Assembly (NCBI GenBank): GCA_027028725.1
Contig: JALVIB010000013.1
Coordinates: forward strand, 1 to 40,722
Length of the DNA stretch: 40,722 nt
From: Candidatus Altimarinota bacterium
Lineage (GTDB): Bacteria > Patescibacteriota > Gracilibacteria > UBA4473
Reading direction: 5' to 3'
Below the pieces are notes generated by a model, which was not told the origin of the DNA, ran no database searches, and was given only the letters and a program-made list of their open reading frames with translations. Made by a program: the position numbers and the translations under genes. Shown here one piece after another: positions 5,825 to 37,640 of this stretch (the first letter of the stretch is position 1; the number at the start of each line of letters is the position of its first letter).

Positions 5825-5848
5825 GCGCGGTCACGTGACCGCGCCTAC
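5825..5848 (-). repeat. REP-like hairpin (GTAG + 20-nt perfect palindrome)
   Basis: GCGCGGTCACGTGACCGCGC followed by CTAC (the complement reads GTAG-GCGCGGTCACGTGACCGCGC). Confidence 0.8.
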
Positions 5849-5866
5849 AAAGAAGTAATTACTTTT

Positions 5867-5892
5867 AGGGCTGGCACAAGACCAGCCCCTAC
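5867..5892 (-). repeat. REP-like hairpin
   Basis: AGGGCTGG-CACAAGA-CCAGCCCCTAC. The complement starts with GTAGGGGCTGG. Confidence 0.75.
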
Positions 5893-6001
5893 ATTTTCTT
5901 CTGACCCCCAAATTTCTATCCTTTTTCAGCGAGAATTCCCGCGAAATTTTGATTTTTTAGAAAAAAAATTATAAAGTTGGAGTGTAAATAAACCCCCCTT
6001 T

Positions 6002-7810
6002 ATGAAAAAAAGAATAATCGCTTTCGTTTTAATTTTAACTTGTGGACTTGCACTTGTCCCACAGGCAAATGCTTTCCGCAGTAGATACGCTGATTTTTGG
6101 GCACAACTTTTTGGACACCATTTCAGCAACAAAAATCCCGCGAAAAAAACAATTTCGCCTTATGCTCGACGGACTACTCGCCGAACTATTAAAAGAAAGC
6201 CATTTTCGCGACTATCAAAGAGACGTTTATTATTTTCCCCCTTCGCCAAGGCTACGGCGGACAGGTCACGGGATTTTCGAAACCGTTATAATCTAAATCG
6301 GCAAAATAACACAACTGGATTGATCGCGACAATTTCGCCAACTACTCCACATCAAAGTATTTACAAAGTTACCGACGATCCGGTTAGTGTTTTTAAAATT
6401 GGTGTTCGCAATAATTCCCGCACCAGTTCGACTAAATTTCCCGCGAATTTTTTGTTGGACAAAGCGGAATTTCAACTTTTTTCTAGAAACGGAATTTTTA
6501 CCGATCCCAGCGATTTTGATTTAGTGGTGAATGGCGAATCTTTTCAGTTTGATAAAAATGGAAAAGCGACAATTAGATTCAACAATGCCAGACTGGCGGA
6601 AGGCGAAAGTTTAGAACTAGATGTTGCGATAAAAGCTGATGATCCGGACAATATGTTACATCAAAACGGAAGTGCAAAATTGCGCTTACTAAATATTACG
6701 GCAAAAAAAGAATTTTCGCGGGATTTTGTGCCAGTTCTTATTCGCGGAAGCCGTATTTCGAAACTTATTTCCTATTTGCCAACACCAGTTGTCAGTAGTA
6801 GCGGAAATTCGACAATTGTTTCAACTGCCGGTTCGTCAATTTACGGCGACTTAATTTTAGCTGGTGAAGAAAAATTTGTTTTAGCGGTTCATATGAATGC
6901 GAGTTACGACGATTTGGCGATTCGAAAAATGACGGTTCACAATGTTTATGGCAACCTGATTGATTCGCAAGTTCAGGAAATTCAAGCCGTAAATCTTTTG
7001 ACCGGAGAACTTTTGGATACTGCGATGTTTACTAACGGTGAAGCACGATTTCAGTTTTCGCCACGCGTAATTATCCCACGAAATGGTTCGGGAAAAATTG
7101 GGTTCAAGGTAAAAACCCGCGAAAATCCGCGAAATCATGGTGATCGGCGTTTGAAACTAACTTTGTCAGCCAACGATGTTTTGGTAGAAAGTTTATCTAA
7201 TGGTCGCGAATTACCGAATTCTCACAAAAATTTCAATATTGATTCTTACGATTTTGTGGTTGTGCGAAGTTCACTAGAAGTTTCTCCGCAAAATCAACCT
7301 AACAATTTTTCAATTGGAACAGGAAGCCCAGAAGGAGTTTATAATTTCGCAATAAATTCGCGGGATTCTGCAGAGCTAGCACGAATTAGTTTTGATGTTT
7401 ATCCAAACGGCTTACAATTTGCTGGAGGAAGCATTTCCCCAGACGATTTTGAGTTAGTCGAAGTTTATGGAAATCACGAAGAAAATCTAAACACAAATAT
7501 TTCAGTTAGCGGAAATAAAGTCACTTTTGATTTCGTAAATCCTCTTTCTTTCTTTCAAAATTCCGCGAAAAATTTCCGTTTAAAAGTTGCCTTGGATGAA
7601 TTAGGTGCGAGCAATGATAATGATGGAGTTTCTGTGCGAATTTCTAGCGATGGAAGTTATATTAACAATACTTTAAATTCAGTGCGTACCAGTGGAGCCA
7701 ACTTCATTTGGTCAGACGAATCCGCCAGTCCACACTCAACAAATAGTGATGACTGGTTTAGCGGATACCGAATGAATTTTCCATCTAATTCAGTTTATAT
7801 TAAGCGATAA
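6002..7810 (+). CDS. secreted protein, unknown function
   Basis: 602 aa. Signal peptide MKKRIIAFVLILTCGLALVPQANA. A basic, low-complexity N-terminal stretch partly encoded by repeats, then a beta-rich region with no motif I recognise. Confidence 0.6.
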   Translation: MKKRIIAFVLILTCGLALVPQANAFRSRYADFWAQLFGHHFSNKNPAKKTISPYARRTTRRTIKRKPFSRLSKRRLLFSPFAKATADRSRDFRNRYNLNRQNNTTGLIATISPTTPHQSIYKVTDDPVSVFKIGVRNNSRTSSTKFPANFLLDKAEFQLFSRNGIFTDPSDFDLVVNGESFQFDKNGKATIRFNNARLAEGESLELDVAIKADDPDNMLHQNGSAKLRLLNITAKKEFSRDFVPVLIRGSRISKLISYLPTPVVSSSGNSTIVSTAGSSIYGDLILAGEEKFVLAVHMNASYDDLAIRKMTVHNVYGNLIDSQVQEIQAVNLLTGELLDTAMFTNGEARFQFSPRVIIPRNGSGKIGFKVKTRENPRNHGDRRLKLTLSANDVLVESLSNGRELPNSHKNFNIDSYDFVVVRSSLEVSPQNQPNNFSIGTGSPEGVYNFAINSRDSAELARISFDVYPNGLQFAGGSISPDDFELVEVYGNHEENLNTNISVSGNKVTFDFVNPLSFFQNSAKNFRLKVALDELGASNDNDGVSVRISSDGSYINNTLNSVRTSGANFIWSDESASPHSTNSDDWFSGYRMNFPSNSVYIKR

Positions 7811-7811
7811 T

Positions 7812-7819
7812 TTCGCGGG
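7812..7819 (-). repeat. short motif core, 1 nt after the 602-aa gene stop
   Basis: TAATTTCGCGGGATTTTGG. Confidence 0.9.
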
Positions 7820-7860
7820 ATTTTGGAAAGTCGCGCCTACAATTTTTCACACTTCTGAAA

Positions 7861-7884
7861 GCGCGGTCACGTGACCGCGCCTAA
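7861..7884 (-). repeat. REP-like hairpin, same palindrome as 5825-5844 with a variant head
   Basis: GCGCGGTCACGTGACCGCGC followed by CTAA instead of CTAC. Confidence 0.75.
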
Positions 7885-7905
7885 AAGAAAATCGCAACTT
7901 GGAAA

Positions 7906-7929
7906 GCGCGACGGCGCCGTCGCGCCTAC
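7906..7929 (-). repeat. REP-like hairpin
   Basis: GCGCGACGGCGCCGTCGCGC + CTAC. Identical to the copy at 9511-9534. Confidence 0.8.
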
Positions 7930-7951
7930 AAAAAAGGAATTATTTTAAATT

Positions 7952-7977
7952 AGGGACGGTTTTAAACCGTCCCCTAC
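7952..7977 (-). repeat. REP-like hairpin
   Basis: AGGGACGG-TTTTAAA-CCGTCCCCTAC. Confidence 0.75.
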
Positions 7978-8170
7978 ATTCCTCAGACCTCTGAATTTCT
8001 CCCCTTCTTCCGTGAAATTCCCGCGAAATTTTTACTCCGCATCAGTGTACTAGTACATTAGTTCAGCCAAATCACTTTCTTATCTTATAAACTTATTGTC
8101 TTGTAAACTTGTGAACTCGTAAACCAACTCTTTATCTTTTCGACTTTTTAGCTTTTGAGCTGTCCTAAAT

Positions 8171-8198
8171 ATTAACTTTTAACTATTAACTATTAATT
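8171..8198 (+). repeat. AACTATTAAC tandem module
   Basis: ATTAACTTTTAACTATTAACTATTAATTT followed by CCCCAAAATCCCGCGAAATTT. Just 3' of the mraY stop. Confidence 0.8.
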
Positions 8199-8208
8199 TC
8201 CCCAAAAT

Positions 8209-8216
8209 CCCGCGAA
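8209..8216 (+). repeat. short motif core, 3 nt after the mraY stop
   Basis: Minus-strand reading is TAAAATTTCGCGGGATTTTGGGG. Confidence 0.9.
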
Positions 8217-8219
8217 ATT

Positions 8220-9275
8220 TTATAAATTCCCCATTCCGAGAATTCCTAAAATTAGTCCGATAATCCCAAATCCCGCTCCAATAATCCAAAATCGCGTTGT
8301 GATTTGGGCTTCTGACCAGCCAATTGCTTCAAAATGATGATGAATTGGCGCGATTTTAAAGAGCTTTTTCCCAAATTTCTTTTTCCAGAAAAGCTGTAAA
8401 ATGACTGATAAAGTTTCCGCGATAAAAACTCCACAAACAATTATGAGAACAATTACCGAATTCGTCAACATCGCGATAACTCCTAAAGTTGCTCCCAAAG
8501 CGAGCGATCCAGTGTCGCCCATGTAAATTTTCGCGGGCGGAACATTAAACCATAGAAAAGCAACTAAGCTAGCAACAATCATCGCGCAAAAAACCGCGAG
8601 AATTGGTAGTCCGTAAAAGTAAGAAATTACCGAAAAAACCCCAAAAGCAATTGCCAAAAGTCCGCCAGCAAGCCCATCTAAACCATCTGTAATATTGACC
8701 GCATTGGAAGTTCCCACGACTACGAAAATAAAAAGTGGCGCATACCATAAACCAATATCAAAATCCCCTATTCCCGGAATATGAATAATTGACCAACCTA
8801 ATTTGAAAGAAAACCAAAGCGCTCCCAAAACCGCAAAAAGCACTAGCGACCAAAGTTTTACTTTCGCGGAAAGTCCTTTTTGTGCGCTTCTTTCGGTGAT
8901 GTTTAGATAATCATCAATCAACCCCAGAACTCCAACTGATAATAAAGTCGCAATTGGCAAATAAGTTTCTCCACGATTGAGAATAGAGTGATCCAAAATT
9001 CCAAAATAAGATAAAACCCGCGAAAAAATCACTACCAACAAAACCGCTGCAATAACCAAAGCTCCCCCCATCGTCGGTGTCCCCGATTTATGCGCATGCA
9101 AAGCGGAAAACAAAGGTGATTTTTTACCATCTAATCCTTGGGAACGAATTTTTTGCGTTAGTTTGAATTTCTGAATTAATTTAATAAATTTGGGAAAAAA
9201 ACTGATTACTAATAAAAAAACCAGTCCCGAATAGGAAAAAATTTCAATCAAATTAGCAATGTGTATTTCCTTCAT
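8220..9275 (-). CDS. mraY: phospho-N-acetylmuramoyl-pentapeptide transferase
   Basis: Multi-TM protein with NAVNITDGLDGLAGG, YMGDTGSLALG and APIHHHFE blocks. Confidence 0.95.
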   Translation of the reverse strand: MKEIHIANLIEIFSYSGLVFLLVISFFPKFIKLIQKFKLTQKIRSQGLDGKKSPLFSALHAHKSGTPTMGGALVIAAVLLVVIFSRVLSYFGILDHSILNRGETYLPIATLLSVGVLGLIDDYLNITERSAQKGLSAKVKLWSLVLFAVLGALWFSFKLGWSIIHIPGIGDFDIGLWYAPLFIFVVVGTSNAVNITDGLDGLAGGLLAIAFGVFSVISYFYGLPILAVFCAMIVASLVAFLWFNVPPAKIYMGDTGSLALGATLGVIAMLTNSVIVLIIVCGVFIAETLSVILQLFWKKKFGKKLFKIAPIHHHFEAIGWSEAQITTRFWIIGAGFGIIGLILGILGMGNL

Positions 9276-9377
9276 CTGTAAATAATAATCTCGCGGGAAT
9301 TTTAGGGAAACTCCTTCGTCTTGTAAACAAAAAAGAATTCAGAGACTTTTCCTAATTTTTTCGCGGGATTTTGGAAA

Positions 9378-9401
9378 GTATGAATTCAAATTCACGCCTA
9401 C
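9378..9401 (-). repeat. REP-like hairpin (imperfect stem)
   Basis: GTATGAATTCAAATTCACGC + CTAC, in the same GGAAAG...CCTACAA context as the other copies. Confidence 0.55.
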
Positions 9402-9510
9402 AATTTTTTCATATTTCCGAAAGCACGAATTCTGTCCCCCTCATTGAGGGGGAATAAATACGAAGAATGAGTATTTCAGGGGGAGCTAAAAAATCGCGGG
9501 AATTTGGTAA

Positions 9511-9534
9511 GCGCGACGGCGCCGTCGCGCCTAC
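9511..9534 (-). repeat. REP-like hairpin
   Basis: GCGCGACGGCGCCGTCGCGC + CTAC. Confidence 0.8.
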
Positions 9535-9552
9535 AAAAAAAGAATAATTTTT

Positions 9553-9578
9553 AGGGCTGGTATAAGACCTGCCCCTAC
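9553..9578 (-). repeat. REP-like hairpin
   Basis: AGGGCTGG-TATAAGA-CCTGCCCCTAC (one stem mismatch). Confidence 0.7.
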
Positions 9579-9587
9579 AAAGTAAAT

Positions 9588-9609
9588 GGCGATTGATAAT
9601 CGCCCCTAC
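9588..9609 (-). repeat. REP-like hairpin, left copy flanking rplS
   Basis: GGCGATTGATAATCGCCCCTAC. Exact reverse complement of 10240-10261. Confidence 0.85.
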
Positions 9610-9611
9610 AA

Positions 9612-9643
9612 AACTATTAACTTCTAACTATTAACTATTAATT
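9612..9643 (+). repeat. AACTATTAAC tandem module
   Basis: AACTATTAACTTCTAACTATTAACTATTAATTT followed by CCCCAAAATCCCGCGAAATTT. Just 3' of the rplS stop. The final ~40 nt (module end plus motif) are identical to 8178-8220. Confidence 0.8.
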
Positions 9644-9653
9644 TCCCCAAAAT

Positions 9654-9661
9654 CCCGCGAA
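9654..9661 (+). repeat. short motif core, 2 nt after the rplS stop
   Basis: Minus-strand reading is TAAATTTCGCGGGATTTTGGGG. Confidence 0.9.
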
Positions 9662-9663
9662 AT

Positions 9664-10101
9664 TTAGCTTGCTGCTTCTTCTGTTTTTTCTTCGGCTACT
9701 TCTTCTTTGGCAATTTCTTTAACTGGTTTTTCAAAAGTTTTGAAAGTCACTTCTTTTTTAATTTCTTTCAATCGTAGAGCTTTACCTTGTCTTTCTCGCA
9801 AGTAGTTCAATTTAGCTCGGCGAACTTTTTGGGAACGCATCACTTCAATCTCGACAATGTTTGGGGAGTGAATTGGGAAAACTTTCTCAACTCCAACTCC
9901 AGAAGCAATTCTTCGTACAGTGAAAGTAGAATTAACTCCGTGTCCAGGATTTACCGCGATAACCGTTCCTTGAAAAACCTGAATACGAGTTTTATTTCCT
10001 TCTTTAATTTTTTGGTGAACTTTAACAATCTGTCCTGGAATTAAGTTTGGTACTTTGTCCTTGCAGTGTTTAAGAGTGAAATCGCGTAAAATTTGAGACA
10101 T
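9664..10101 (-). CDS. rplS: 50S ribosomal protein L19 with an acidic C-terminal extension
   Basis: GQIVKVHQKIKEGNKTRIQVFQGTVIA, TFTVRRIASGVGVEKVFPIHSP, RRAKLNYLR blocks. Confidence 0.93.
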   Translation of the reverse strand: MSQILRDFTLKHCKDKVPNLIPGQIVKVHQKIKEGNKTRIQVFQGTVIAVNPGHGVNSTFTVRRIASGVGVEKVFPIHSPNIVEIEVMRSQKVRRAKLNYLRERQGKALRLKEIKKEVTFKTFEKPVKEIAKEEVAEEKTEEAAS

Positions 10102-10239
10102 TTTTAAATTAATTAAGTCAAAATCAGGCGAATACTAATAATTTTGTTTTTTCTGGCAAGTTTTTTCGCGGGATTTTGAGATAGCGAAAAAGTCAACAAG
10201 TCGAAAAGACAAAAATTTAGTTTACAAGTTCGCAAGCAA

Positions 10240-10261
10240 GTAGGGGCGATTATCAATCGCC
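10240..10261 (+). repeat. REP-like hairpin, right copy flanking rplS
   Basis: GTAGGGGCGATTATCAATCGCC. Confidence 0.85.
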
Positions 10262-10321
10262 TATATAAAAAAAATCCCGCGAAATTTTGAGCTAACACAA
10301 GATTAGAACCTGCATAAATTA

Positions 10322-10517
10322 TTAAGGAAACTCTGATAAATAACGCAAAATAGAAAATTTTAAGATTTTTGAGATAATTTTTTTGAGAAATTGATTTTCG
10401 TAGCGGGCTACGGAAATCACTATTTCGAGGGAAAATTAGCCAAAAAGATGAATTTTGTTTTTGCGCCTGCCTAATTCCTTTATTGTGTAGAATTTTTATT
10501 TATCAGAATTTCCTTAA
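10322..10517. mobile_element. 196-bp element bounded by 21-bp inverted repeats (candidate MITE or long hairpin)
   Basis: TTAAGGAAACTCTGATAAATA (10322-10342) versus TATTTATCAGAATTTCCTTAA (10497-10517): 20 of 21 complementary. Internal hairpin CGTAGC-GG-GCTACG. Non-coding. Confidence 0.5.
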
Positions 10518-10543
10518 CTATTAACTTTTAACTATTAATTTTT
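10516..10543 (+). repeat. AACTATTAAC tandem module
   Basis: AACTATTAACTTTTAACTATTAATTTTT followed by GTAAATCCCGCGAATTTTT. 34 nt upstream of the mutL start. Confidence 0.8.
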
Positions 10544-10576
10544 GTAAATCCCGCGAATTTTTCTAAAATACTTCCG

Positions 10577-12460
10577 ATGTCTATTCAGGTTTTGCCTCCC
10601 GAAATCGCTAATCAAATTGCCGCCGGTGAAGTTGTCGAAAGACCCGCCAGCGTGGTCAAAGAATGCGTTGAAAATTCCCTCGATGCCGGCGCGAAAAATA
10701 TTGAAATTCATATTTCAGACGGCGGAAAAGAACTGATTAAAATCATCGATGATGGGAAAGGAATGTCGCCTGAAGACGCGAAAAAATGCCATTTGCGACA
10801 CGCTACTTCTAAAATTTCTAAAATCGATGACTTATTTACAGTGCAATCTTTTGGTTTTCGCGGAGAAGCACTTGCCGCAATTTCTGCGGTTTCGGATTTT
10901 ACTTTGATTACGAAACGCGCGGAAGACGAAACCGGAACAAAAATCCAAATTTTCGCGGGAAAAAATATCACCGAATCCCCTGCTCCCGCCAATACCGGGA
11001 CAACGATTGAGATTAGAAAATTATTCTATCCAACTCCGGCTCGTTTGGCTCATTTAAAGACAAATGCGACCGAAATTCGCGAAATTTCGCGGGAAATTCA
11101 AGCTTTTGCGCTAGCTAATCCGCAAGTTAGTTTTAAGTTTTTTAAGGACGACAAACTTGCTCTGGATTTGCCGGCAACGGATAAAAAAACGCGTGTAGCC
11201 GAAATTTTGAAAGAAAATCCCGATGACTTGGCAGAAGTTTTCTTTAAATCCCGCGAAATTTCTATTTCCGGATTTCTCATTAAACCGGGAAAATGTGTTT
11301 CTAATAAAAAATCTCAATTTTTGTTTGTAAACGGACGCCGAATCGAAGACTATAAATTAGCTTACGCCATTCGTGAAGCGTATGTGCAGTCGGCAGGAAT
11401 TGAGCATCACTTGCATCCAAAATTCGCGATATTTATCGAAATTGATCCGATTTTGGTCGATGTAAATGTTCATCCGCGGAAATTGGAAGTGAAATTTGCG
11501 GAAGCGGGCGATGTTTTTCGCGCGGTCAAGCAGGCGTGTGTTTCGGCTTTGGAAAAAGTCCACACTACTCCTTTTTCTGGATTTGTAGGGACAGGTCGCG
11601 ACCTGTCCGCCCAAAATAGTCAAAATTTCGCGGGATTTCAGCCCTCACCCCAAACCCTCTCCCCGAGGGAGAGGGAGTTCTCATCAAACGGAAGAAAAAA
11701 TTATCAATCTTTTGGAATAAATAATAACGCGCACAAAATCCCGCGAAATTATCCGAAAATGTCCAAGTCCGGACTTAATACATATTCAAACACATCAAGT
11801 CCGGACTTAAAAACATTTTCTACTCAAAACTTTGAGCGAAATTTACAAAACACAGGCAATTTTCCACTTCCAGAAGAAAAAAATATTGTGCCAACCGGCG
11901 AACTAAAACTCATCGGGCAAATTTCGCGAAAATACATTATGGCGGAGGCGGAAAACGGGATTTGGATATTTGATCAGCATGCTTTGCACGAACGCCAGCG
12001 CTTTGAAGAGTTTTGGAAATCCCGCGAAAAATTGACCAAGGAAATTCAAAAATTACTTGTTCCGTATGTCTTAAAAATTGAAGACGAAGATTGGGAAACA
12101 ATTTGGCAAAATCGCTCGGAATTACAAAAACTTGGTTTTGAATTTAGCGAAAACAAAGAAGTTTTAGCCGTTCCCAAAATTCTAGTCAAAGAAAATCTTG
12201 ACCAAATTTTCGCGGGATTTTCGCAGTATTTTTCCGAAAATAAAGTCGGTGAAACGCCAGTTGATCGATTTTTACGAAAAATTCTGGAATACAAAAGTTG
12301 TCGTGGTGCGGTAATGTTTGGTGATAAAATGGAACCTGCCGAAATGCAAAAACTTTTGGACGATTTCCAGACTACGCAATGGCGAAATCTCTGTCCACAC
12401 GGCCGTCCAAATCATATTTTTTGGAGTTTTGATGATTTAGACAGAGAGTTTCATCGGTAA
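10577..12460 (+). CDS. mutL: DNA mismatch repair protein MutL
   Basis: N-terminal GHKL ATPase blocks (IQVLPPEIANQIAAGEVVERPASVVKECVENSLDAGA, DDGKGM, FGFRGEAL). C-terminal dimerisation domain with QHALHERQ and CPHGRP. The linker (about 11585-11810) is built from repeats. Confidence 0.93.
   Translation: MSIQVLPPEIANQIAAGEVVERPASVVKECVENSLDAGAKNIEIHISDGGKELIKIIDDGKGMSPEDAKKCHLRHATSKISKIDDLFTVQSFGFRGEALAAISAVSDFTLITKRAEDETGTKIQIFAGKNITESPAPANTGTTIEIRKLFYPTPARLAHLKTNATEIREISREIQAFALANPQVSFKFFKDDKLALDLPATDKKTRVAEILKENPDDLAEVFFKSREISISGFLIKPGKCVSNKKSQFLFVNGRRIEDYKLAYAIREAYVQSAGIEHHLHPKFAIFIEIDPILVDVNVHPRKLEVKFAEAGDVFRAVKQACVSALEKVHTTPFSGFVGTGRDLSAQNSQNFAGFQPSPQTLSPREREFSSNGRKNYQSFGINNNAHKIPRNYPKMSKSGLNTYSNTSSPDLKTFSTQNFERNLQNTGNFPLPEEKNIVPTGELKLIGQISRKYIMAEAENGIWIFDQHALHERQRFEEFWKSREKLTKEIQKLLVPYVLKIEDEDWETIWQNRSELQKLGFEFSENKEVLAVPKILVKENLDQIFAGFSQYFSENKVGETPVDRFLRKILEYKSCRGAVMFGDKMEPAEMQKLLDDFQTTQWRNLCPHGRPNHIFWSFDDLDREFHR
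11585..11608 (+). repeat. REP-like hairpin embedded in frame in the mutL linker
   Basis: GTAG + GGACAGGTCGCGACCTGTCC (perfect 20-nt palindrome). Translated as VGTGRDLS. Confidence 0.8.
11765..11776. repeat. AAGTCCGGACTT 12-nt perfect palindrome (in the mutL linker)
   Basis: Exact 12-mer, read as KSGL. Confidence 0.85.
11797..11808. repeat. AAGTCCGGACTT palindrome (in the mutL linker, different frame)
   Basis: Exact 12-mer, read as SPDL. Confidence 0.85.
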
Positions 12461-12463
12461 AAT

Positions 12464-12471
12464 CCCGCGAA
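12464..12471 (+). repeat. short motif core, 3 nt after the mutL stop
   Basis: TAAAATCCCGCGAAAAATTT. Confidence 0.9.
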
Positions 12472-12512
12472 AAATTTGATTTATAATATTTTTTGTGTTT
12501 TATTTAGATTAA

Positions 12513-13133
12513 ATGAAATTTAAAAATAAATTATTAATAGGTGGGTCTATCGTTTTAGGAAGCGTAACTATTGGTCTATTTCTAAATAATAAAAAAGAAA
12601 TCGCAAGGTTTGAGAATATAACAAAAGGAAAAATTGCAAAAATCATCGAAAATGAAGCAAAAATATATAAACAAGATCCTAAACTTTTAAAAACCTGTGC
12701 TCTTACTGAATCATTAAATAGTAACACGCCAAATGTTTTTCAATTAGAAACTAAGACTTACATAGAAATTGCTATAGAATTGTATCATGCTGGTCATACC
12801 GATATCGATACAACTTCTGCAGGTCTTAATAATTTAGAATCAAGTATTAAATGTGGAGTTAAGCATTTTTCGCGACTTTTATACAAATACAGTGATCATT
12901 ATGGTGGAAATTACAAATCTTATTATCCTCAAATACAAAAAATAATATCTGATCAGGGACTCAATAATCTATCTCCAGTTGTAGTTATGTCCTTGATAGC
13001 ACACAATCGTGGTGAAGGGAATATGGATAAGTGGCTCAAAAATGGTTGTAATTTTAAAGATTTACCAAGGATAACTAAAGAACATATTGCAAGGGCCGAT
13101 CGCAATATGCGTTGGATGCGAAAAAGCGCTTAA
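12513..13133 (+). CDS. membrane-anchored protein, possibly a lytic transglycosylase (SLT-like)
   Basis: 206 aa. N-terminal TM helix. TES...NVFQLE and AHNRGEGN loosely resemble the ES / LMQ / AYNxG blocks of family-1 lytic transglycosylases. Very AT-rich, with no CCCGCGAA motif. Confidence 0.35.
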   Translation: MKFKNKLLIGGSIVLGSVTIGLFLNNKKEIARFENITKGKIAKIIENEAKIYKQDPKLLKTCALTESLNSNTPNVFQLETKTYIEIAIELYHAGHTDIDTTSAGLNNLESSIKCGVKHFSRLLYKYSDHYGGNYKSYYPQIQKIISDQGLNNLSPVVVMSLIAHNRGEGNMDKWLKNGCNFKDLPRITKEHIARADRNMRWMRKSA

Positions 13134-13142
13134 TTAAAAAAA

Positions 13143-14525
13143 TTATCCAACAAACCTCTTTAAAACGCCAACTAAAATTTCTTTCTTTTCGGCGAGAGAT
13201 TTTTCATCGCGAGCTTCAATCCGAATGGAAATTTTTGGTGAAGTGTTGGAACAACGAATAATCCCCCACTCCAAGTTTCCAAATTCCACGCGAACTCCGT
13301 CTGTCGTGTCTGCATCAGGATATTTTTCGACTAAAATCCCGCGAATTTTTTCTAAAATTTCAAATTTTTCTTCGTCCGGAACACTGAATTTTTCGGAAAA
13401 CTCTAATAAAGTTGGCCAATGCACCAGAGTTTCTGCCAAAAGTTGCGGGAAAGATTGAATCGCCGTAATAAAGCGTAATCCCGCGAGAATTGCATCATCG
13501 TGTCCGTAAAAATTTTCGCCGAACATAAAGTGTCCACTCTGTTCTCCTCCTAATTTCGCGGGAATTTCGTGCATTTTTTCTTCGATATAAGAATGCCCGG
13601 TTTTGGAAAAAACAGGTTTTCCACCAATCTCGCGAATTTTTTCCGCCAGAGCTGTAGAACTCATCGCGTCAATTACAATCGACTCTCCAGGGTTTCGAGA
13701 AAGAAAATCCGCCGCCAAAATATACATAATTTTATCTGCGGAAAAAATTTCTCCTTCCTTGGAAACAATTCCAATTCGGTCGCCGTCTCCATCAAAAGCA
13801 AATCCGAAATCAGCTTTATTTTCGCGGGTTTTTTGGATTAAGTCTTGCAAATTTTCCACGCGTTCCGGATCTGGCTGATGATTGGGAAAAGTCGTATCCA
13901 AATCACAATACAGCTCAATCACATTGTGTCCAAATTCGCGCAAAATCTGCGGATAATAAAGTCCCGCCACTCCGTTTCCCGCATCAACAACGATGTTTAG
14001 AAGTTTTTGTTTTGGCGTAATTTCCTGCAATTTTTCTAAATATTCCGCGAAAAAATCGACTTTTTGGCAATTATTATCGCAAATTCCCATATCTTTTGCC
14101 AACAAGCACTTCGTGCATTCCGCCATTTTGGCGATTTTTTGCAGTTCTGCTCCGCAGACCGAGCCATTTTTGTCCATAAATTTTAGACCATTATCTTTCG
14201 CGGGATTATGGGAAGCGGTAATTTGCACCGTCGCGTTAAAACCAGCGTCATTGAAATAAAAATAATTCATTGGACTAGTAATTGTTCCGCCCCAAACAAC
14301 TTCTGCGCCAACTGATTCAAGTCCACCGACAACGGCCGGCCAAAGCTCCGGCATAGATTGTCGTCCGTCCCCAGCGACAAAAATTCGCGGGTTTTTAAGA
14401 TTGAATTTATCTTTAATATATCGTCCAAAAGCCGCCGCCGTCACAAAAAATCCGTCTTCGTCAAAGTCTTTAAAAGCTTCTCCGCGAATATCGTAAGCTC
14501 GGAATATTTTTTTGTTTAAAATCAT
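13143..14525 (-). CDS. phosphomannomutase/phosphoglucomutase (alpha-D-phosphohexomutase)
   Basis: FRAYDIRG, active-site TASHNPAKDNG, metal loop FDGDGDR, sugar loop GGEQSGH. Confidence 0.88.
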   Translation of the reverse strand: MILNKKIFRAYDIRGEAFKDFDEDGFFVTAAAFGRYIKDKFNLKNPRIFVAGDGRQSMPELWPAVVGGLESVGAEVVWGGTITSPMNYFYFNDAGFNATVQITASHNPAKDNGLKFMDKNGSVCGAELQKIAKMAECTKCLLAKDMGICDNNCQKVDFFAEYLEKLQEITPKQKLLNIVVDAGNGVAGLYYPQILREFGHNVIELYCDLDTTFPNHQPDPERVENLQDLIQKTRENKADFGFAFDGDGDRIGIVSKEGEIFSADKIMYILAADFLSRNPGESIVIDAMSSTALAEKIREIGGKPVFSKTGHSYIEEKMHEIPAKLGGEQSGHFMFGENFYGHDDAILAGLRFITAIQSFPQLLAETLVHWPTLLEFSEKFSVPDEEKFEILEKIRGILVEKYPDADTTDGVRVEFGNLEWGIIRCSNTSPKISIRIEARDEKSLAEKKEILVGVLKRFVG

Positions 14526-14645
14526 TTGGAAAAATAAAATTTCGCGGAAATATTAACTCAATTTCCCCAATTATGCTAAAAAAATTTGACTATAAATGAA
14601 ATTCCGCGAAAATTTAGGGGAACTATAATTTTTAACCAATAAAAA

Positions 14646-15140: not shown

Positions 15141-15157
15141 TTTAGAGAATTAAATAC

Positions 15158-15190
15158 AAAAAAAGACGGCTCACGGAGTCGTTTTTTTTA
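15158..15190 (+). terminator. Rho-independent terminator after the 164-aa gene
   Basis: AAAAAAAG-ACGGCTC-ACG-GAGTCGT-TTTTTTT: 7-bp stem with one G-U pair, followed by a T-run. Confidence 0.65.
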
Positions 15191-15227
15191 TTTTAAAATT
15201 TCGCGGGATTTTGCTAATCTACCAAAG

Positions 15228-16067: not shown

Positions 16068-16110
16068 AAAAATGCCCGAAGAACAAGAGAAGCTCAGAGA
16101 TTAGAATAAT

Positions 16111-16146
16111 AAAAAAGCACAACCGTGTAGCCGTGCTTATATTTTT
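16111..16146. terminator. weak hairpin between the convergent truB and trxA genes
   Basis: AAAAAAGCAC-(12-nt loop)-GTGCTTATATTTTT. The short stem and large loop make this tentative. Confidence 0.35.
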
Positions 16147-16160
16147 GAAAACCTAAATTG

Positions 16161-16189
16161 TTAACTATTAACTTTTAACTATTAACTTT
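16161..16189 (+). repeat. AACTATTAAC tandem module
   Basis: TTAACTATTAACTTTTAACTATTAACTTT. Ends 4 nt from the trxA stop. Confidence 0.8.
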
Positions 16190-31941: not shown

Positions 31942-32007
31942 AATATCAGGGGGTTTGTTTTTCTTTGCCTGAATTATGTATCTTTTTTTCTAAAAACTCA
32001 ATAAATT

Positions 32008-32015
32008 TTCGCGGG
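32008..32015 (-). repeat. short motif core, 12 nt after the 1,796-aa gene stop
   Basis: Minus-strand reading is TAAAATCCCTAAAATCCCGCGAAAATTT. Confidence 0.9.
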
Positions 32016-32027
32016 ATTTTAGGGATT

Positions 32028-35000
32028 TTATTTTGGAGGACTCCAACTCATTAAAACTTTTTCAATAACTTCAGTATTTTCAAAGTATTTTTCGCGTGTT
32101 TCTGGACTATCTAATAATTTTTTTGCCTTTTCCCAAACACCACTTTCTTCCAACTTCTTTTTTCGCTCTTTATATTGAATTCCATATTCCAAAACACCCA
32201 TAAAATCTAAAACTTCTCCAAATCCATCATCACCACCAGCAACTTGAAAAACCTGTTTCATAAAACTATTAATTTGTTCTTTGCTTCTTTGAGCCGAAGC
32301 TGAATAACCTGTATCTTCCTTTCTCCAATCTTCTGCATTAAAGACTATTGAACCACGCTCCTGTCCAAGGTTAATATTACCTTGAAGTGTTTGAGTTACA
32401 GTTAAAGCCGCATTTAATCTGTCTCCAACCTCAATTAATGCTCTTTTCCTTTCTTTTTGCCAACCAGGTAATTCACCCCATTTTTCATCTCCTTCTTTAA
32501 TATAATCCCGCATCATTTGCATATATGTCGGAAATCCTGATAAATAACGACGCCAAAGGTCGTTTGACAATTTGTTTTCACCACCAGAAGATTGTGACAT
32601 ATTGTTTATAAGATGGACCTGCTTCCAGTCCGCGAAAAAACTTTCTGCATCATCATGATCTCCCTCTTTATCTGAAAAACGATCCATTCGCGAAACACGA
32701 TCACGAGCCGGTGGGGAAGCATGTACAATATGATAAAAGAATTTTTTTGTTTGTTCTTTAATATTAGAATCATTAAGAATATCAAAAGACCCACCTCCAT
32801 TACCAAGAAAGTCTCCCCAAGCCTTATAGTCTTCATATGTCCACCCTCTTTTTTCTGCTCCTGGAGTGTCTTCTGGAACAATTCTGCCATTTAATTTATA
32901 AGATTCCTTATCTGTTAAAAAATCAACATGTGGAAATCTTGCTAAAAATTTATCATTAATTCGCATAAAGGCATCTCGTGAAATTAAACTACGATTTGTT
33001 TTAGGATTTATAGTAGCAACCCCCATTACTAAAAAATACCATCTTTGATCAGGTTGTCCGTTCATTTTTCCTTTCTCAAAAGACTCATGAATAAAACATT
33101 CATATTTCGCGGGATCTACATCTGTACTATCTCCTCTTGCCCATTTTTTTAACATTGTTGATAAAATCCTACTCCTAGCTACAGGAGAGTCCTCATATCT
33201 AGCAAAATCAGCTTTAAAACTATCGATTGCTGAATCAAGTTTACCTTTAAGATTAGTATCCCAATCTCGGAATGTTTCTTTTGACCAAATAAATTCACAA
33301 GCATTACGAACTTTGTCCAAGATTTCTAAACGAGAAAGATTTAAGTCTTCAGGAATACGGAAAGTAACTGCATTTCCGGACAACCTCATCAAAGTTCTCC
33401 ATAGTCCAGGATCATCCCATTGCAAAACCCCCTTATCTAACATCAATCTAATCAAAGCTTTAGCTTCATCTTGGTCATTGGTACGATATAAGGCATCTTG
33501 CAAATCCCATCCCGGCACTTCTCCATACTGAGTTTCAAATTCTTTAACCCGGTTTTCTTCTGCTTCTTCTGCCTTTTGCTTAAAATCTTTTCCCCAAGCT
33601 GATTTCTCACCAAAAAAACTCATTCCAATATTTGCCACAGCTCGCTCTGAATCACGCTGCCATCTTCTTTCATGCACTTCAATTGCTTGTTTTACAATGG
33701 CATATAAATCATACAATGAGAATCTTTGATAATTCCTCTGAGGACCACTGTTTTTGGCATTATCATCATATTCTGTCACCCATTTTTTAATTTTTTGCGC
33801 ACTATCATTGGCGCTCTTTGAATAATCTCGCAAAGAATTAAAATCTGCCATTTCAGCAATAGCTTCTGCTCTGTCCTGCGGAGATGCATCATAACGATTA
33901 ATCCAGTCTTTTAGGAACCCTGACTTAAAAAATTTATCTGATTTTTCTTTAAATTCATTCAGTCTTGCTCTATGTTGACTCAAAATATCTTCTAAATACT
34001 CCTTATCCAAACCATATTTATTAAAGAAGTCTTGATCATCCATTTTGTTTAAATCTCGACGGATTCGACTTTCAACATCATTAATTGCTTCCTGATATTC
34101 CGCGAAATCTTTTTTAAACCCTTTAACTACCTCATTATAATTTTTGGTAAATTCTTCTTTATCAGGCGTATCATCATCAAAAAATTGCAACTCGGTCAGA
34201 AGCTCCAAAGCTCTATTGGAATCTTCCAAATATTTATTTAAAGACTCACTTTCTTTAGCAAATTTCCCGTCTCGAAAATTCAAAGCTGTTTCAAGTTTGA
34301 TGAAATTATCAGCGAAAATTTCCCAGAAAGTCTCTTTTCCCGTAAATTTATAATCAATTTTTTTCGCGTGTTTTTGCAAATTATCAAAAGTCTTCTGGAA
34401 ACTATCCAACATTTTCATTGGAACTTCCATCAATAAATCGGTAAATTCAGCCGGATTAACTCCTTCCGGCAAAACTTCGTTAATGACTGTACCTAAATCT
34501 AAAAATTTATTTCTTAATTTCTCCTTTTGTTCCGGCCATTTCTCAAAAAGTTTATCTAACTCATTTTTAGCTTCTGCTTGACGCAAACTCGCCGCAATCG
34601 GATCATCTTTCATCTTAGAAATCCCGCGAAATTTTTCAGCAATTTGGGCAATATCATCCCGTAATCCATTAGTTATTTCTGCAATTTCATTATTAACACT
34701 CTGTGTTTGTAAAGCTATTTCATTCAAAAACTCGCGCCCCGGAGCCCAAATTAATTTAGGTTTACCATTTTTATCTTTTCCCCAATATCGCCCGCCTCTT
34801 TGATAAGCTTGTTTGCGGTACTCAAAGGACTCTTCTAATTTATCTGCTTCATCTAAATAATGTTGTTTTTTCGCGGGATTTGTTTCTTCTTCAGCTTTAC
34901 GACGCAACCGTTCTACATAAGCTTCATTAACTTGGTGTGCATCTTCTATTTCTTGTGATGTAATTAATTTATTTTGCTCATAAGCCACATGATCTTCGTG

Positions 35001-37418
35001 TAATTTTGTCGGATCAACTCCCGCTGCCAAACCATTATGAATTCGGTCCCAACCAGCATAGAAGTCATTTAATTCTTCTTCGGTCAATTCATCACGAACA
35101 TCTCTTGAGGCAATATCAAAGATTCGATCTCGATAACTGTGAATTGCTCCATCAACAAGCTGTGAAAGTTGTTGTGGATGCGGAAATTCTTGTCGCAAAT
35201 CAAATCCTTCTTCTGCCAAACGCGCAATAATATTTTCGTAACTAAGCGCTTTATCTAGTTCGTTATACCATGGCGAGAATTTATCTTCTCCGTCTGAAAG
35301 ATGTTCAATATCCGGTAAAACAGTGTCTTCAAAAATTGATTCCAAAATTCCCGCGAATTTTTGACGAAATTCATTAACTTTTTCCTTATTTGGAGTGTTT
35401 AGAATATTATCGCGAAATTCCGCAAAATCTGCATAATAAGGATTTCGCGGATTATTAACTTCGTCTCCCCAGAGAACTTCAAAATCCGCCGCATATAAAT
35501 TTCGATTAGCAATTCTTGAATTTATATTACTTAAAAATAAATCCTTTGATTCTCTCGCGACTTTTTTCGGGTCTTTTAGGAAATGTTGCCAAGTTTTATA
35601 TGTGTCTAAATTCTTTGTTTCATCGCGAACCTTTTCTTTTAATTTTTTATATTTTTCATTTAGCTTATTTCTTTCTTCCTCGTAAGAACTTACGATTGGC
35701 ACTTGTCCATAAAGCGTTTTGGCTTGATTTTCCCACCTATTAATTTCTTGACCATACTTTTTAAATCCTTCCTGTTGTTTCTTGTAATTCTCATTTTCTT
35801 TTAAGTCTGAGCTAAGCTTAATTGATAATTCTCTAAATTCTTCAATAAATTTTTCGCGGGATTTTAAATCACTTCCTATGCTTGCCTTATCCGTTGAAAA
35901 TCTTTTTATTTTCGCGGGAATTCCTTCTTTTATCTCTTTTTCTTTATTTTCAAATCTTTTTTCATTATTTTTCAGTAATTCTTCTCTTCTCTTCTCATCT
36001 TCTATTTTCTGAATTTCTAAATCACTTTTAATTTTTTCCAATTCAAGTTCTTCTAATTTCTTTTCCTTTATGCTTTCCCATGCCTTTTCCAAATCCTTAA
36101 CCCATTCATCAAAATCTTTATTCCAATGTCTTTCAATAATTTCATTTTTTTCTTCTAATAATTTTTTATAGTTCTGCTCAATTACTTCTACTTTATTAAA
36201 ATCAACAATTTTAGACGCTTCCCAAGCGTCTTTAATTTTTTTCTTCTCCGTCTCATTTCCTTCTAAATAAGACTGAAGACCATATCTTTCTACTGACAAT
36301 TTTTTATTTTCCAAATCTCGCAGTTTCTTTTCCAACTTATCTAGTTCCTCATTTTCCGCAGAAAAATTGAGCCATTCATCTAAATCTTTAATTTGAACGA
36401 GTTCAAAATCTTCTTGCAAAATTTCGTGCAAAGCTTGCAGATGTGTCGGCAAGAAAACCGGCGATTTTTGCGCAAATTGCAAAAACTTAATCGCTTCAGT
36501 TGATTTAAATGCTTTATTAATCTCTTCTTCTTTTACGATACTGAGAATTTTGCGTCGCAAAGTTTCTGCCGACTCTACTTCTGATGGACTTCCCAAAAAC
36601 TCGCGAAGTAATTCCCAAGTAAAAGCCATATTAGGATTGTAAAGTTTCTTTGGCGACTTCAAGAGAGTGGCCACCGCCTGAACAGCAATATTATCCCAAT
36701 CATAAAACCGACTTTTTTCCGCCCATTTTCTCTCGTTCGGAAACATTCGACGAATCTCCAAAACAAGCAATTTTTCTTCCAAAGTCATTACTTCATTCTT
36801 CTTTGATTCAATAATATCGTAGGCCTTATCCCCGCTAGTGACAGACTTGGTCATCAAAGTAAAAGCCTTATCCACAATTTTTTCGCGGGCTTTTTCAAAA
36901 ACATCTTTTCGTTTCCCGTCTTTCAAAACAGCATTTTTTTGTAACCTTCGATACAAAGCACAAACTTTGGAAAGCTCAAAAGTGCTCCAATTATTTTTAT
37001 TCACAATGCTCCCCAAAGCACGCACCTGCTTATCAACTTCCGCGATAATTTGGTTCTGCATACGCTTTGGTAGAAGCTTACGCAGTGGAGAATCCGCTAA
37101 ATGATTCAACAATCGCGGTGGCAAATCTTCCATATCTTTCCCCCGCGCTAAGCTCAGCTGATATCCCGCGATATTTCGAAAACGACGCTTTTGAAAAGCG
37201 TTCATATGCTCCGCATTTTCTTCCAAAAATCGCAATTCTTTCACACCAAACCCTAGCGGACTGCGCAGAGCTTTTTCTATTTGTTTATCAATATCTTCCT
37301 TATCTTCAGGAACAGAAGGTCCTTTTGGTCCACCGGCAAAGTATAAAAATTTACCAGCGCCGTGCCCCGCTAAGCGGTGGAAATCTTCATTTTCAAACCC
37401 GTTAAATAATTTTTTCAT
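32028..37418 (-). CDS. large (about 1,796 aa) E/K-rich coiled-coil protein, no signal peptide, unknown function
   Basis: Uninterrupted ORF 86 nt upstream of the giant gene on the same strand. Start set at MKKLFNG (ATG complement 37416-37418), because the tracked 23-aa extension is read through a motif copy (FFAGF). No catalytic motif recognised. Confidence 0.65.
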   Translation of the reverse strand: MKKLFNGFENEDFHRLAGHGAGKFLYFAGGPKGPSVPEDKEDIDKQIEKALRSPLGFGVKELRFLEENAEHMNAFQKRRFRNIAGYQLSLARGKDMEDLPPRLLNHLADSPLRKLLPKRMQNQIIAEVDKQVRALGSIVNKNNWSTFELSKVCALYRRLQKNAVLKDGKRKDVFEKAREKIVDKAFTLMTKSVTSGDKAYDIIESKKNEVMTLEEKLLVLEIRRMFPNERKWAEKSRFYDWDNIAVQAVATLLKSPKKLYNPNMAFTWELLREFLGSPSEVESAETLRRKILSIVKEEEINKAFKSTEAIKFLQFAQKSPVFLPTHLQALHEILQEDFELVQIKDLDEWLNFSAENEELDKLEKKLRDLENKKLSVERYGLQSYLEGNETEKKKIKDAWEASKIVDFNKVEVIEQNYKKLLEEKNEIIERHWNKDFDEWVKDLEKAWESIKEKKLEELELEKIKSDLEIQKIEDEKRREELLKNNEKRFENKEKEIKEGIPAKIKRFSTDKASIGSDLKSREKFIEEFRELSIKLSSDLKENENYKKQQEGFKKYGQEINRWENQAKTLYGQVPIVSSYEEERNKLNEKYKKLKEKVRDETKNLDTYKTWQHFLKDPKKVARESKDLFLSNINSRIANRNLYAADFEVLWGDEVNNPRNPYYADFAEFRDNILNTPNKEKVNEFRQKFAGILESIFEDTVLPDIEHLSDGEDKFSPWYNELDKALSYENIIARLAEEGFDLRQEFPHPQQLSQLVDGAIHSYRDRIFDIASRDVRDELTEEELNDFYAGWDRIHNGLAAGVDPTKLHEDHVAYEQNKLITSQEIEDAHQVNEAYVERLRRKAEEETNPAKKQHYLDEADKLEESFEYRKQAYQRGGRYWGKDKNGKPKLIWAPGREFLNEIALQTQSVNNEIAEITNGLRDDIAQIAEKFRGISKMKDDPIAASLRQAEAKNELDKLFEKWPEQKEKLRNKFLDLGTVINEVLPEGVNPAEFTDLLMEVPMKMLDSFQKTFDNLQKHAKKIDYKFTGKETFWEIFADNFIKLETALNFRDGKFAKESESLNKYLEDSNRALELLTELQFFDDDTPDKEEFTKNYNEVVKGFKKDFAEYQEAINDVESRIRRDLNKMDDQDFFNKYGLDKEYLEDILSQHRARLNEFKEKSDKFFKSGFLKDWINRYDASPQDRAEAIAEMADFNSLRDYSKSANDSAQKIKKWVTEYDDNAKNSGPQRNYQRFSLYDLYAIVKQAIEVHERRWQRDSERAVANIGMSFFGEKSAWGKDFKQKAEEAEENRVKEFETQYGEVPGWDLQDALYRTNDQDEAKALIRLMLDKGVLQWDDPGLWRTLMRLSGNAVTFRIPEDLNLSRLEILDKVRNACEFIWSKETFRDWDTNLKGKLDSAIDSFKADFARYEDSPVARSRILSTMLKKWARGDSTDVDPAKYECFIHESFEKGKMNGQPDQRWYFLVMGVATINPKTNRSLISRDAFMRINDKFLARFPHVDFLTDKESYKLNGRIVPEDTPGAEKRGWTYEDYKAWGDFLGNGGGSFDILNDSNIKEQTKKFFYHIVHASPPARDRVSRMDRFSDKEGDHDDAESFFADWKQVHLINNMSQSSGGENKLSNDLWRRYLSGFPTYMQMMRDYIKEGDEKWGELPGWQKERKRALIEVGDRLNAALTVTQTLQGNINLGQERGSIVFNAEDWRKEDTGYSASAQRSKEQINSFMKQVFQVAGGDDGFGEVLDFMGVLEYGIQYKERKKKLEESGVWEKAKKLLDSPETREKYFENTEVIEKVLMSWSPPK
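37354..37385 (+). repeat. composite element copy h (degenerate left flank; in frame at the N-terminus of the 1,796-aa gene)
   Basis: CCAGCG-CCGTGCCCCGCTAAGCGGTGG-AAATC. Read antisense as DFHRLAGHGAGKF. Confidence 0.8.
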
Positions 37419-37555
37419 TTGTAATCCGAAGATTATACCATAAAATCCCGCGAAAAAATAGACACATGAAGCTATTTTCGCTTGCAATAAGACGACATAT
37501 GTTAATTTTATAAAATTTCGCGGAATTTTTTATTTTTTTCGTGCATTTGTTGTTG

Positions 37556-37581
37556 TAGAGACGTTGCATGCAACGTCTCTA
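37556..37581 (+). repeat. REP-like hairpin
   Basis: GTAGAGACGTTGCATGCAACGTCTCT. A 24-nt perfect palindrome that overlaps the GTAG head. Confidence 0.75.
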
Positions 37582-37614
37582 ACGCGTATTTCTAAATTTT
37601 TTCGCGGGATTTTC

Positions 37615-37640
37615 GTAGGGGCGATCCCTTGTGGTCGCCC
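37615..37640 (+). repeat. REP-like hairpin
   Basis: GTAGGGGCGATC-CCTTGT-GGTCGCCC. Confidence 0.7.

Follow-up and report, generated by a model that had tools for sequence, protein, structure and literature searches.

GTAG-tagged, REP-like hairpins in spacers and genes of a putative candidate phyla radiation bacterium

Repetitive extragenic palindromes (REPs) that carry a GTAG tag form a superfamily of 24 families from 8 phyla, with stems of 6-13 bp, which includes the SMAG repeats of Stenotrophomonas (Di Nocera, De Gregorio & Rocco 2013, PMC3733652). Several families can be found in one genome, some families are common to distant organisms, and sub-families differ by complementary changes in the stem; intragenic copies are frequent in DNA-repair and tRNA-synthetase genes, many REPs have been argued to act as RNA, and genes for REP-associated tyrosine transposases (RAYTs) usually have flanking GTAG-tagged REPs (PMC3733652). 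REPINs, short REP-derived non-autonomous repeats that form populations within genomes, have had their movement ascribed to a single-copy RAYT (Bertels & Rainey 2011, PMC3116915). Here, we describe GTAG/CTAC-tagged palindromes in contig JALVIB010000013.1 (assembly GCA_027028725.1), a stretch of 40,722 bp that is one whole contig of a metagenome-assembled genome (MAG) and is called the window below. On balance, these hairpins are probably GTAG-tagged REP-type repeats in a bacterium of the candidate phyla radiation (CPR, or Patescibacteria), which a RAYT would have copied in trans. The genomes of CPR bacteria have a reputation for being streamlined, with few repeats and little mobile DNA. GTAG-tagged REPs themselves are already known; a CPR host for them is mentioned in neither PMC6006769 nor PMC12306157, and none was found in literature searches.

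Anatomy, enrichment and covariation of the hairpins

The window holds 14 tagged palindromes (Table 1), 13 in five spacers and one inside mutL, all at the places where the initial annotation had put them. Nine copies are perfect and five are imperfect or degenerate; the tag is GTAG on the nine perfect and on four of the imperfect or decayed copies, and TTAG on one. Ten copies have their head on the minus strand, so that the plus strand reads palindrome followed by CCTACA, and four have it on the plus strand. Each unit consists of a head, (T)TGTAG(G), a GC-rich inverted repeat of 7-13 bp with a loop of 0-7 nt, and a short tail. The conserved head exceeds GTAG and is typically TTGTAGG, and two types of tail occur, CTTTCC after GCGCG-type stems (class 1) and CTA(AAA) after GGG-type stems, where pairing of TAG with CTA lengthens the stem. 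Many stems are perfect palindromes through their centre (CACGTG, GGCGCC, TCGCGA, GCATGC) and have no loop. Five stem types recur, each in at least two non-orthologous copies in the window and about 20 kb of relatives' sequence.

A perfect GC-rich hairpin directly follows 9 of the 126 GTAG occurrences on both strands, compared to a background of 0.25% over all tetramers. In 200 first-order Markov simulations, the average was 0.06 such hairpins and no simulation had more than 1. The tag is present on 9 of the 21 perfect GC-containing hairpins of the window. GTAG itself is rarer than expected, with 53 + 73 copies on the two strands versus about 118 + 160. The earlier observation of tagged hairpins was confirmed; one copy has a TTAG head, one is AT-rich and one has lost its stem. 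Twelve of the 14 copies fold strongly (-9 to -21.5 kcal/mol, z -2.5 to -5.3 versus shuffles), the exceptions being the AT-rich variant (-5.1 kcal/mol) and the truncated copy.

The stems differ but covary. In an ungapped alignment of 13 class-1 hairpins, seven rows of which come from outside the clade and were picked from pattern matches that looked like hairpins, 99% of cells are paired, both-sided changes occur in 5 of 8 pairs, and 25 cells are double-sided versus 6.7 in shuffles, with none of 500 shuffles as high and slid registers far below. Changes of the same kind are found within the clade: an inner stem GTCAC/GTGAC is replaced by ACGGC/GCCGT, in a close relative (L118), the orthologue of the 9503..9539 copy has T-A in place of C-G, a compensatory change, as well as a G.T pair, and a variant of the 37555 hairpin in another relative (L119) has a compensatory A-T to G-C change. 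The claim that the stems vary and yet stay self-complementary was upheld, as was that of REP-like anatomy, for which a GT(A/G)G tag, a short GC-rich palindrome and covarying families (PMC3733652) all speak. Furthermore, the terminal sequence of the REPs next to E. coli rayT is GCCTACAA, the opposite-strand form of the extended head TTGTAGGC of the window hairpins.

Three of the five hairpin-bearing spacers separate divergent genes and two separate convergent or tandem ones. Each copy carries GTAG on the strand that is sense for a flanking or host gene in the same orientation. Three head-to-tail doublets, at 5.8, 7.9 and 9.5 kb, consist of a class-2 hairpin, a conserved AT-rich linker and a class-1 hairpin, and they mix stem types: in the doublet at 9.5 kb, the class-2 stem is that of the doublet at 5.8 kb and the class-1 stem that of the doublet at 7.9 kb. 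Hairpin spacing is irregular, at 35-47 nt and larger. The term BIME (bacterial interspersed mosaic element), applied to these clusters in the initial annotation, is only loosely apt: in BIMEs, regularly spaced REPs with defined inter-REP motifs alternate in orientation, an alternation also seen in the E. coli rayT control, whereas each cluster of the window has a single orientation. No REPIN-type inverted REP pairs were found in the window. CRISPR and TIGR arrays were ruled out by irregular spacing, differing 'repeats' and a lack of Cas/Tas domains in Pfam scans, and integron attC sites were rejected because no integrase was found, core sites not having been looked at closely. An untagged hairpin of related look, TCCCCCTCATTGAGGGGGA, lies at 9435-9453.

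Gain among relatives and occurrence in genes and phages

Orthologous mutL-rplS-mraY loci were compared from eight relatives whose ribosomal protein L19 is 81-95% identical to that of the window, with L118 at 95%. The rplS-mraY spacer measures 388 bp and holds five hairpins in the window, measures 329 bp with three hairpins in L118, and is 106-115 bp long in L117, L120, L121-123, L144 and L147; in L145/L146, where the contigs stop before mraY, its minimum length is about 190 bp. Between mutL and rplS, the spacer extends over 475 bp in the window, 67 bp in L118 and 103-198 bp in the other relatives. No GTAG hairpins were found in either spacer of relatives other than L118. In L117, L144, L145/L146 and L147, rplS is followed by a plain hairpin-plus-T-run intrinsic terminator, and in the window and L118 the hairpin array occupies its place. 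The hairpins have been gained recently at orthologous sites, and this presence and absence of copies among close relatives bolsters the REP reading.

Hairpins are also tolerated in-frame within genes. MutL is 627 aa long in the window and 586-612 aa in relatives, with the hairpin-encoded residues VGTGRDLS among the extra residues of its linker. This hairpin also occurs in the mutL genes of L121/L122, where its reading frame is unchanged and its site in the linker fails to align with the one in the window; MutL of L117 and L120 is without it. A search of metagenome contigs with a 39-nt element core matched one contig, the 1.3-kb JGI contig L119, whose valS-like ORF contains two GTAG hairpins, both in-frame. 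The intragenic copies, four in all, are sense-oriented and are read in the frame GTA-GGx. A second, untagged hairpin, CCCTCTCCCCGAGGGAGAGGG at 11655-11675, is likewise in-frame in the MutL linker, to which it contributes further residues (...TLSPRERE...), and lies in a segment of ~50 nt that mutL of L117 is without.

Identical stems occur far outside the lineage. Exact copies of GTAGGGACAGGTCGCGACCTGTCC were found in 6 IMG/VR contigs, and of TAGAGRCGTTGCATGCAACGYCTCTA and GTAGGGGCGATTATCAATCGCC in 5 each; the 16 IMG/VR contigs with exact 22-28-mers of these three stem types range from 36 to 64% GC and do not contain the 8-nt word that abounds in the window (see below). Class-1 (GCGCG) hairpins and the GGGGCWGG type were not found in the IMG/VR search. 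GCGCG-type hairpins with other inner stems are present in Kerfeldbacteria, Peregrinibacteria, Poribacteria, Leptospiraceae, Fluviicola, Aequorivita and a gammaproteobacterial MAG. Among the matches listed for the pattern AAGCGCG-N10-CGCGCCTAC, at least three further contiguous pairs are seen in 7 of 10 low-GC matches versus 4 of 106 high-GC matches.

In one phage, GTAG hairpins sit in each intergenic gap between structural genes. Two phage fragments illustrate the setting. The fragment IMGVR_UViG_3300029305_011967 (L141; 1637-6818), with terminase, P22-like portal and capsid genes, has dense GTAG hairpins between its structural genes, 18 in all with many stems, and it alone shows head-to-head (HH) inverted dimers; in IMGVR_UViG_3300014914_000039 (L138; 2179-9451), 8 hairpins of the GTAGAGACG...CGTCTCTAC type lie between structural genes that include Mu Gp36, tail sheath and tape-measure genes. 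No RAYT was found on either fragment. Literature searches returned no paper on REP arrays in phage genomes and nothing relevant for the exact hairpin sequences.

The window has a GC content of 37% and is 90% coding. Among its genes are a Mur ligase gene, trmD, mraY, rplS, mutL, a phosphoglucomutase-family gene (PGM_PMM domains), truB and trx, and two giant open reading frames (ORFs) encode 3,844 and 1,819 aa. The closest named L19 homologues are 67-72% identical and labelled 'Candidatus Gracilibacteria bacterium', and the ORFs are unbroken with the standard code, for which reasons the host was treated as a member of the CPR; best hits would place it in the Gracilibacteria/Peregrinibacteria neighbourhood. 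Rfam and ARAGORN gave 0 matches to RNA families or tRNAs in the window, which rules out the hairpins being either of these. An assembly artefact was also ruled out, because the sequence is identical in independent ENA, Logan and NCBI assemblies. In public assemblies, nearly all contigs of clade relatives measure just 1-4 kb, and each end of the window is a contig end in independent assemblies. Both observations are consistent with short repeats breaking the assemblies of this clade, which is probably the case and is of practical relevance.

Mobilisation and alternative explanations

As judged from the sequence comparisons, the hairpins behave as mobile or amplifying DNA, and mobilisation by a RAYT would follow from the biology of the family (PMC2817692, PMC3733652). 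On single-stranded DNA, folding would turn the unit into a hairpin that has GTAG at the 5' foot, the substrate that in studied systems is bound and cut by the Y1/HUH transposase RAYT (TnpAREP). A RAYT encoded elsewhere in the genome, or formerly present, could copy such hairpins in trans. Copies do accumulate head-to-tail in a few 'junkyard' spacers; transcribed copies would probably also act as RNA stem-loops. The statement that the window contains no RAYT gene held up, as neither a Pfam scan for RAYT/Y1_Tnp of all window ORFs that encode 100 aa or more, the two giants among them, nor phmmer with E. coli RayT as query on its six-frame ORFs, nor inspection of its small ORFs lacking assignment for an HUH motif revealed one. 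With the same query, the six-frame ORFs of all fetched loci yielded only one marginal match, in Aequorivita (E = 0.003).

Several observations weigh against the hairpins being RAYT-copied REPs. There is no RAYT/Y1_Tnp gene in the window or in any fetched clade locus; the three divergent spacers are a location rare for REPs (PMC3733652); and all copies inside each cluster are head-to-tail in one orientation. The many loop-less and bulge-less perfect palindromes go beyond what hairpin function alone would need, and base pairing extends to TAG within the tag in hairpins of the symmetric types, unlike in the REP definition, where the tag is unpaired. Finally, the borders of a 130-bp block at the abundant word, described below, could equally mean recombination, not transposition. 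It is possible, if unlikely, that the hairpins belong to cosmopolitan families spread by phages between unrelated hosts, and that they persist or multiply in a roughly 1-Mb genome without a RAYT of its own. Such a scenario would mean mobilisation in trans by an outside enzyme or a mechanism that does not involve a RAYT; the loop-less palindromes and the insertion borders at a word resembling an uptake signal would be consistent with the latter.

The word in question is the 8-mer CCCGCGAA/TTCGCGGG, of which the window has 45 + 57 = 102 copies (~2.5/kb) versus about 0.3 expected, and whose extended form reads aAAATCCCGCGAAAwttt. Both orientations and all six reading frames are represented, and most copies are inside genes, although its density is 6.6/kb in spacers versus 2.1/kb in genes; it often stands right after stop codons and within promoter-like spacers. 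Among L117-L123 and L144-L146, relatives with at least 81% L19 identity have ~2 copies per kb, and none was found in L124/L125 (78% identity). This pattern resembles that of a DNA uptake sequence. The word had been listed among the recurring modules of the hairpin mosaics; it is not one of them, being mostly genic and lineage-wide. The modules CTTCTGACCYCYRAATTTC (3 occurrences versus 0.05 expected) and the AACTATT tandems do recur.

The main rival explanation, to which we give little credence, is that recombination between copies of AAAATCCCGCGAAA, the abundant word, reshuffles and duplicates entire blocks of the spacers and carries the hairpins along as passengers, a process that uptake of related DNA could aid if the word is an uptake signal. 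A block of ~130 bp (9380..9509, minus strand) that is present in the window and missing in L118 has the identical 17-nt sequence CTT(A/T)CC-AAA(A/T)TCCCGCG at both borders, so that its ends fall within the word between CCCGCG and A, and the extra 375 bp of the window's mutL-rplS spacer end at the junction of CCCGCG and AAAAAA. The heads or tails of hairpins directly adjoin the word at 7811, 9360, 9495 and 37601 and in L119, the mixing and matching of stem types among the doublets (9.5 kb versus 5.8 and 7.9 kb) is as expected of exchanged blocks, and a hairpin of L118 resembles a chimera of two window copies. Shuffling does not account for the conserved GTAG tag, however, nor for solitary hairpins without neighbouring modules inside mutL and, twice, in the valS-like ORF of L119, nor for identical stems in unrelated phage contigs that lack the word; the solitary copies and the word-free genomes speak for the hairpins also moving on their own.

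An RNA-level explanation, in which the stem-loops are terminators, mRNA stabilisers or processing sites selected in place and not mobile, has some appeal, because the GTAG strand is always sense relative to a co-oriented gene, the array of the window and L118 occupies the site at which relatives have the intrinsic terminator of rplS, and the G.T pair of L118 falls on the sense strand; it would also agree with the RNA role argued for many REPs (PMC3733652). Nevertheless, it is improbable as an account of origin. Most stems have no T-run, a weak T-rich tail follows only 2 hairpins, and terminator-like sites are not enriched (7 versus 6.2 expected), which rules out ordinary intrinsic terminators, an alternative that the initial annotation had named as capable, together with the absence of any HUH/Y1 transposase, of overturning the REP reading. 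Copies are located in divergent promoter spacers and within coding sequence, sequences of 20-28 nt that are identical between non-orthologous loci and between unrelated genomes cannot have had independent origins, and the presence/absence data already indicate mobility. A function acquired after insertion is compatible with the REP reading and is not an alternative origin; an RNA role is therefore plausible as a secondary function that cannot explain where the copies came from. Least probable of all, to the point of being hardly credible, is that the palindromes are double-stranded sites for a dimeric DNA-binding protein, be it a regulator, a nucleoid protein or one related to restriction-modification. 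Palindromy through the very centre, which a hairpin loop does not need, would suit such a protein, but other copies have non-palindromic loops of 3-7 nt, no regulon-like placement was seen, and the stems are almost wholly different from copy to copy while the asymmetric head and tail stay, the opposite of a sequence-specific operator; moreover, covariation without sequence conservation is already seen in a small sample.

Accompanying repeats and comparison with known systems

The GTAG hairpins accompany two other short-repeat systems in the lineage and stand amongst further modules (Table 1).

Table 1. Tagged hairpins and accompanying repeats, with coordinates in the window unless a relative is named
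Feature	Position	Strand	Remarks
Class-1 GTAG hairpin TTGTAGG-CGCGGTCACGTGACCGCG-CTTTCC	5817..5853 (perfect 20-nt palindrome 5825-5844)	-	RNA fold -19.1 kcal/mol, z -5.0
Class-2 GTAG hairpin GTAGGGGCTGG-TCTTGTG-CCAGCCCTA	5862..5897 (palindrome 5868-5888)	-	Head-to-tail doublet with 5817..5853
Truncated class-1 copy GGAAAG-TCGCG-CCTACAA	7825..7842	-	Head and tail kept, stem gone, no fold; directly adjoins word TTTCGCGGGATTTT, after stop codon of ORF 6002-7810
Class-1 hairpin, head variant TTAG for GTAG	7853..7889 (palindrome 7861-7880)	-	Stem of the 5825 copy
Class-1 GTAG hairpin GTAGG-CGCGACGGCGCCGTCGCG-CTTTCC	7898..7934 (palindrome 7906-7925)	-	
Class-2 GTAG hairpin GTAGGGGACGGTTT-A-AAACCGTCCCTA	7947..7982 (palindrome 7953-7973)	-	Doublet with 7898..7934
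AT-rich decayed class-1 variant GTAGG-CGTGAATTTGAATTCATA-CTTTCC	9370..9406 (stem 9379-9396; 9373-9403 by wider limits)	-	Weak fold, z -1.2; in the 130-bp block missing from L118
Class-1 GTAG hairpin	9503..9539 (palindrome 9511-9530)	-	Stem as at 7906; L118 orthologue compensatorily changed
Class-2 GTAG hairpin GTAGGGGCAGG..CCAGCCC	9548..9583 (stem 9553-9575)	-	One A.A mismatch; more decayed in L118
GTAG hairpin GTAGGGGCGATTATCAATCGCC	9583..9614 (palindrome 9588-9604)	-	First hairpin past rplS stop; exact 22-mer in 5 IMG/VR contigs
Second GTAGGGGCGATTATCAATCGCC copy	10240..10262 (hairpin 10240-10261)	+	rplS/mutL divergent spacer
Intragenic GTAG hairpin GTAGGGACAGGTCGCGACCTGTCC	11585..11608	+	In-frame in MutL linker; encodes VGTGRDLS
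Symmetric GTAG hairpin TGTAGAGACGTTGCATGCAACGTCTCTA	37555..37583 (hairpin 37555-37581)	+	13-bp arms, TAG paired to CTA; exact core in 5 IMG/VR contigs
GTAG hairpin GTAGGGGCGATCCCTTGTGGTCGCCC	37615..37640	+	Word TTTCGCGGGATTTT immediately before
Stem type GCGCGGTCACGTGACCGCGC	5825, 7861		
Stem type GCGCGACGGCGCCGTCGCGC	7906, 9511		
Stem type GGGGCGATTATCAATCGCC	9588, 10245		
Stem type GGACAGGTCGCGACCTGTCC	Window mutL, L121/L122 mutL, L119 valS-like ORF		
Stem type GAGACGTTGCATGCAACGTCTC	37556		Compensated variant in L119
Module CTTCTGACCYCYRAATTTC	5898..5916; further copies 7981-7999, 37688-37706	+ (5898..5916)	3 occurrences versus 0.05 expected
AACTATT heptamer tandem	9612..9641		About 4 units; mosaic module
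Further AACTATT arrays	8166-8196, 10514-10543, 16161-16189, 37654-37683		
Word CCCGCGAA, examples	6137, 8209, 9654, 10276, 37447		
Second repeat family	4979, 19486, 22080(-), 23321, 27279, 28223(-), 28330, 37351, 38560, 40520(-); L119 701-727		

The second repeat family, AAAATCCCGCG-CTGTGCCCCGCAAGGCGGTGG-AAATTTT, has the appearance of the abundant word interrupted, just past CCCGCG, by a GC-rich hairpin of 21 nt (7 codons). Nine of its 10 copies in the window are within ORFs, in both orientations and several frames, and add peptides such as KSRAVPRKAVE and FHRLAGHGAGN. The family constitutes a tiny in-frame insertion element, apparently with target specificity for the word.

Further modules are common to the spacers, the long ones being pieced together from repeats of several kinds. 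A 62-nt inverted pair (8108-8169 versus 10175-10236, 77% complementary) contains AAAAAGTCGAAAAGACAAAAA as well as short tandem units of CTTGTAAA/AACTTGT, and shared modules are located at 5780, 8130 and 10190. The spacer at 10.1-10.6 kb, listed at first among the mosaic spacers, includes a separate MITE-like element (miniature inverted-repeat transposable element) of ~190 bp at 10322-10516 in the rplS/mutL spacer, which is bounded by terminal inverted repeats GGAAAYTCTGATAAATAA (27-nt arms, 89% complementary), has TTAA on both flanks and adjoins an AACTATT heptamer array; it is missing from the orthologous spacer of L118, and no other copy was found in the fetched loci. The palindrome AAGTCCGGACTT (or CAAGTCCGGACTTG) occurs five times, at 11765, 11797, 39882, 39914 and 40685; two copies are inside mutL and one lies 24 nt from the contig end.

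The lineage departs from the view of CPR genomes as poor in repeats: GTAG-type REP hairpins are recent arrivals in its spacers and even in essential genes, namely mutL and, in a relative, a valS-like gene. Should the genome encode a RAYT, the range of REP-RAYT systems would reach into the CPR, and the lineage would offer a compact natural system for studying REP gain; should it encode none, it would become a test case for the spread of REPs without a transposase.

The described systems differ in how closely they match. In Nostoc, Elhai and colleagues reportedly found, in 2008, small dispersed repeats capable of forming hairpins within or next to intergenic heptamer tandem arrays; sequences and host are different from those described here, and the likeness is limited to co-location with the AACTATT arrays. 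The Rickettsia palindromic elements (RPEs) share with the hairpins of this lineage that they are palindromic in-frame inserts in essential genes, tolerated as extra peptide segments. However, the inserts of the window lineage are 24-28 nt long (about 8-9 codons) and GTAG-tagged, whereas RPE-4 and RPE-6 belong to CGTC families, RPE-1 is a longer palindromic insertion, and no RPE is GTAG-tagged (PMC3733652). A REPIN consists of two inverted REPs that form one long hairpin, unlike the window doublets, which are two different hairpins in direct orientation. With the REPs and BIMEs of E. coli and their RayT (YafM, TnpAREP), the hairpins share the extended head, a GC-rich palindrome, and mosaic clusters with conserved linkers; the E. 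coli REPs, however, are imperfect, bulged, longer (about 35 nt), alternating in BIMEs and found flanking rayT, while the window stems are perfect, 14-26 nt long and co-oriented, with no rayT seen in the window.

The comparison with the GTAG-tagged REP superfamily is the most extensive. The window differs from it in its CPR host, with an apparently small genome of 37% GC, and in clusters that are purely head-to-tail, in mostly divergent spacers, in many loop-less palindromes and in some paired tags. On the other hand, it has in common with the superfamily a terminal GTAG, a GC-rich stem with a short loop, several families per genome with compensatory sub-families, clusters in which flanking DNA is reiterated, in-frame copies in repair and tRNA-synthetase genes, and the sharing of a family by distant organisms.

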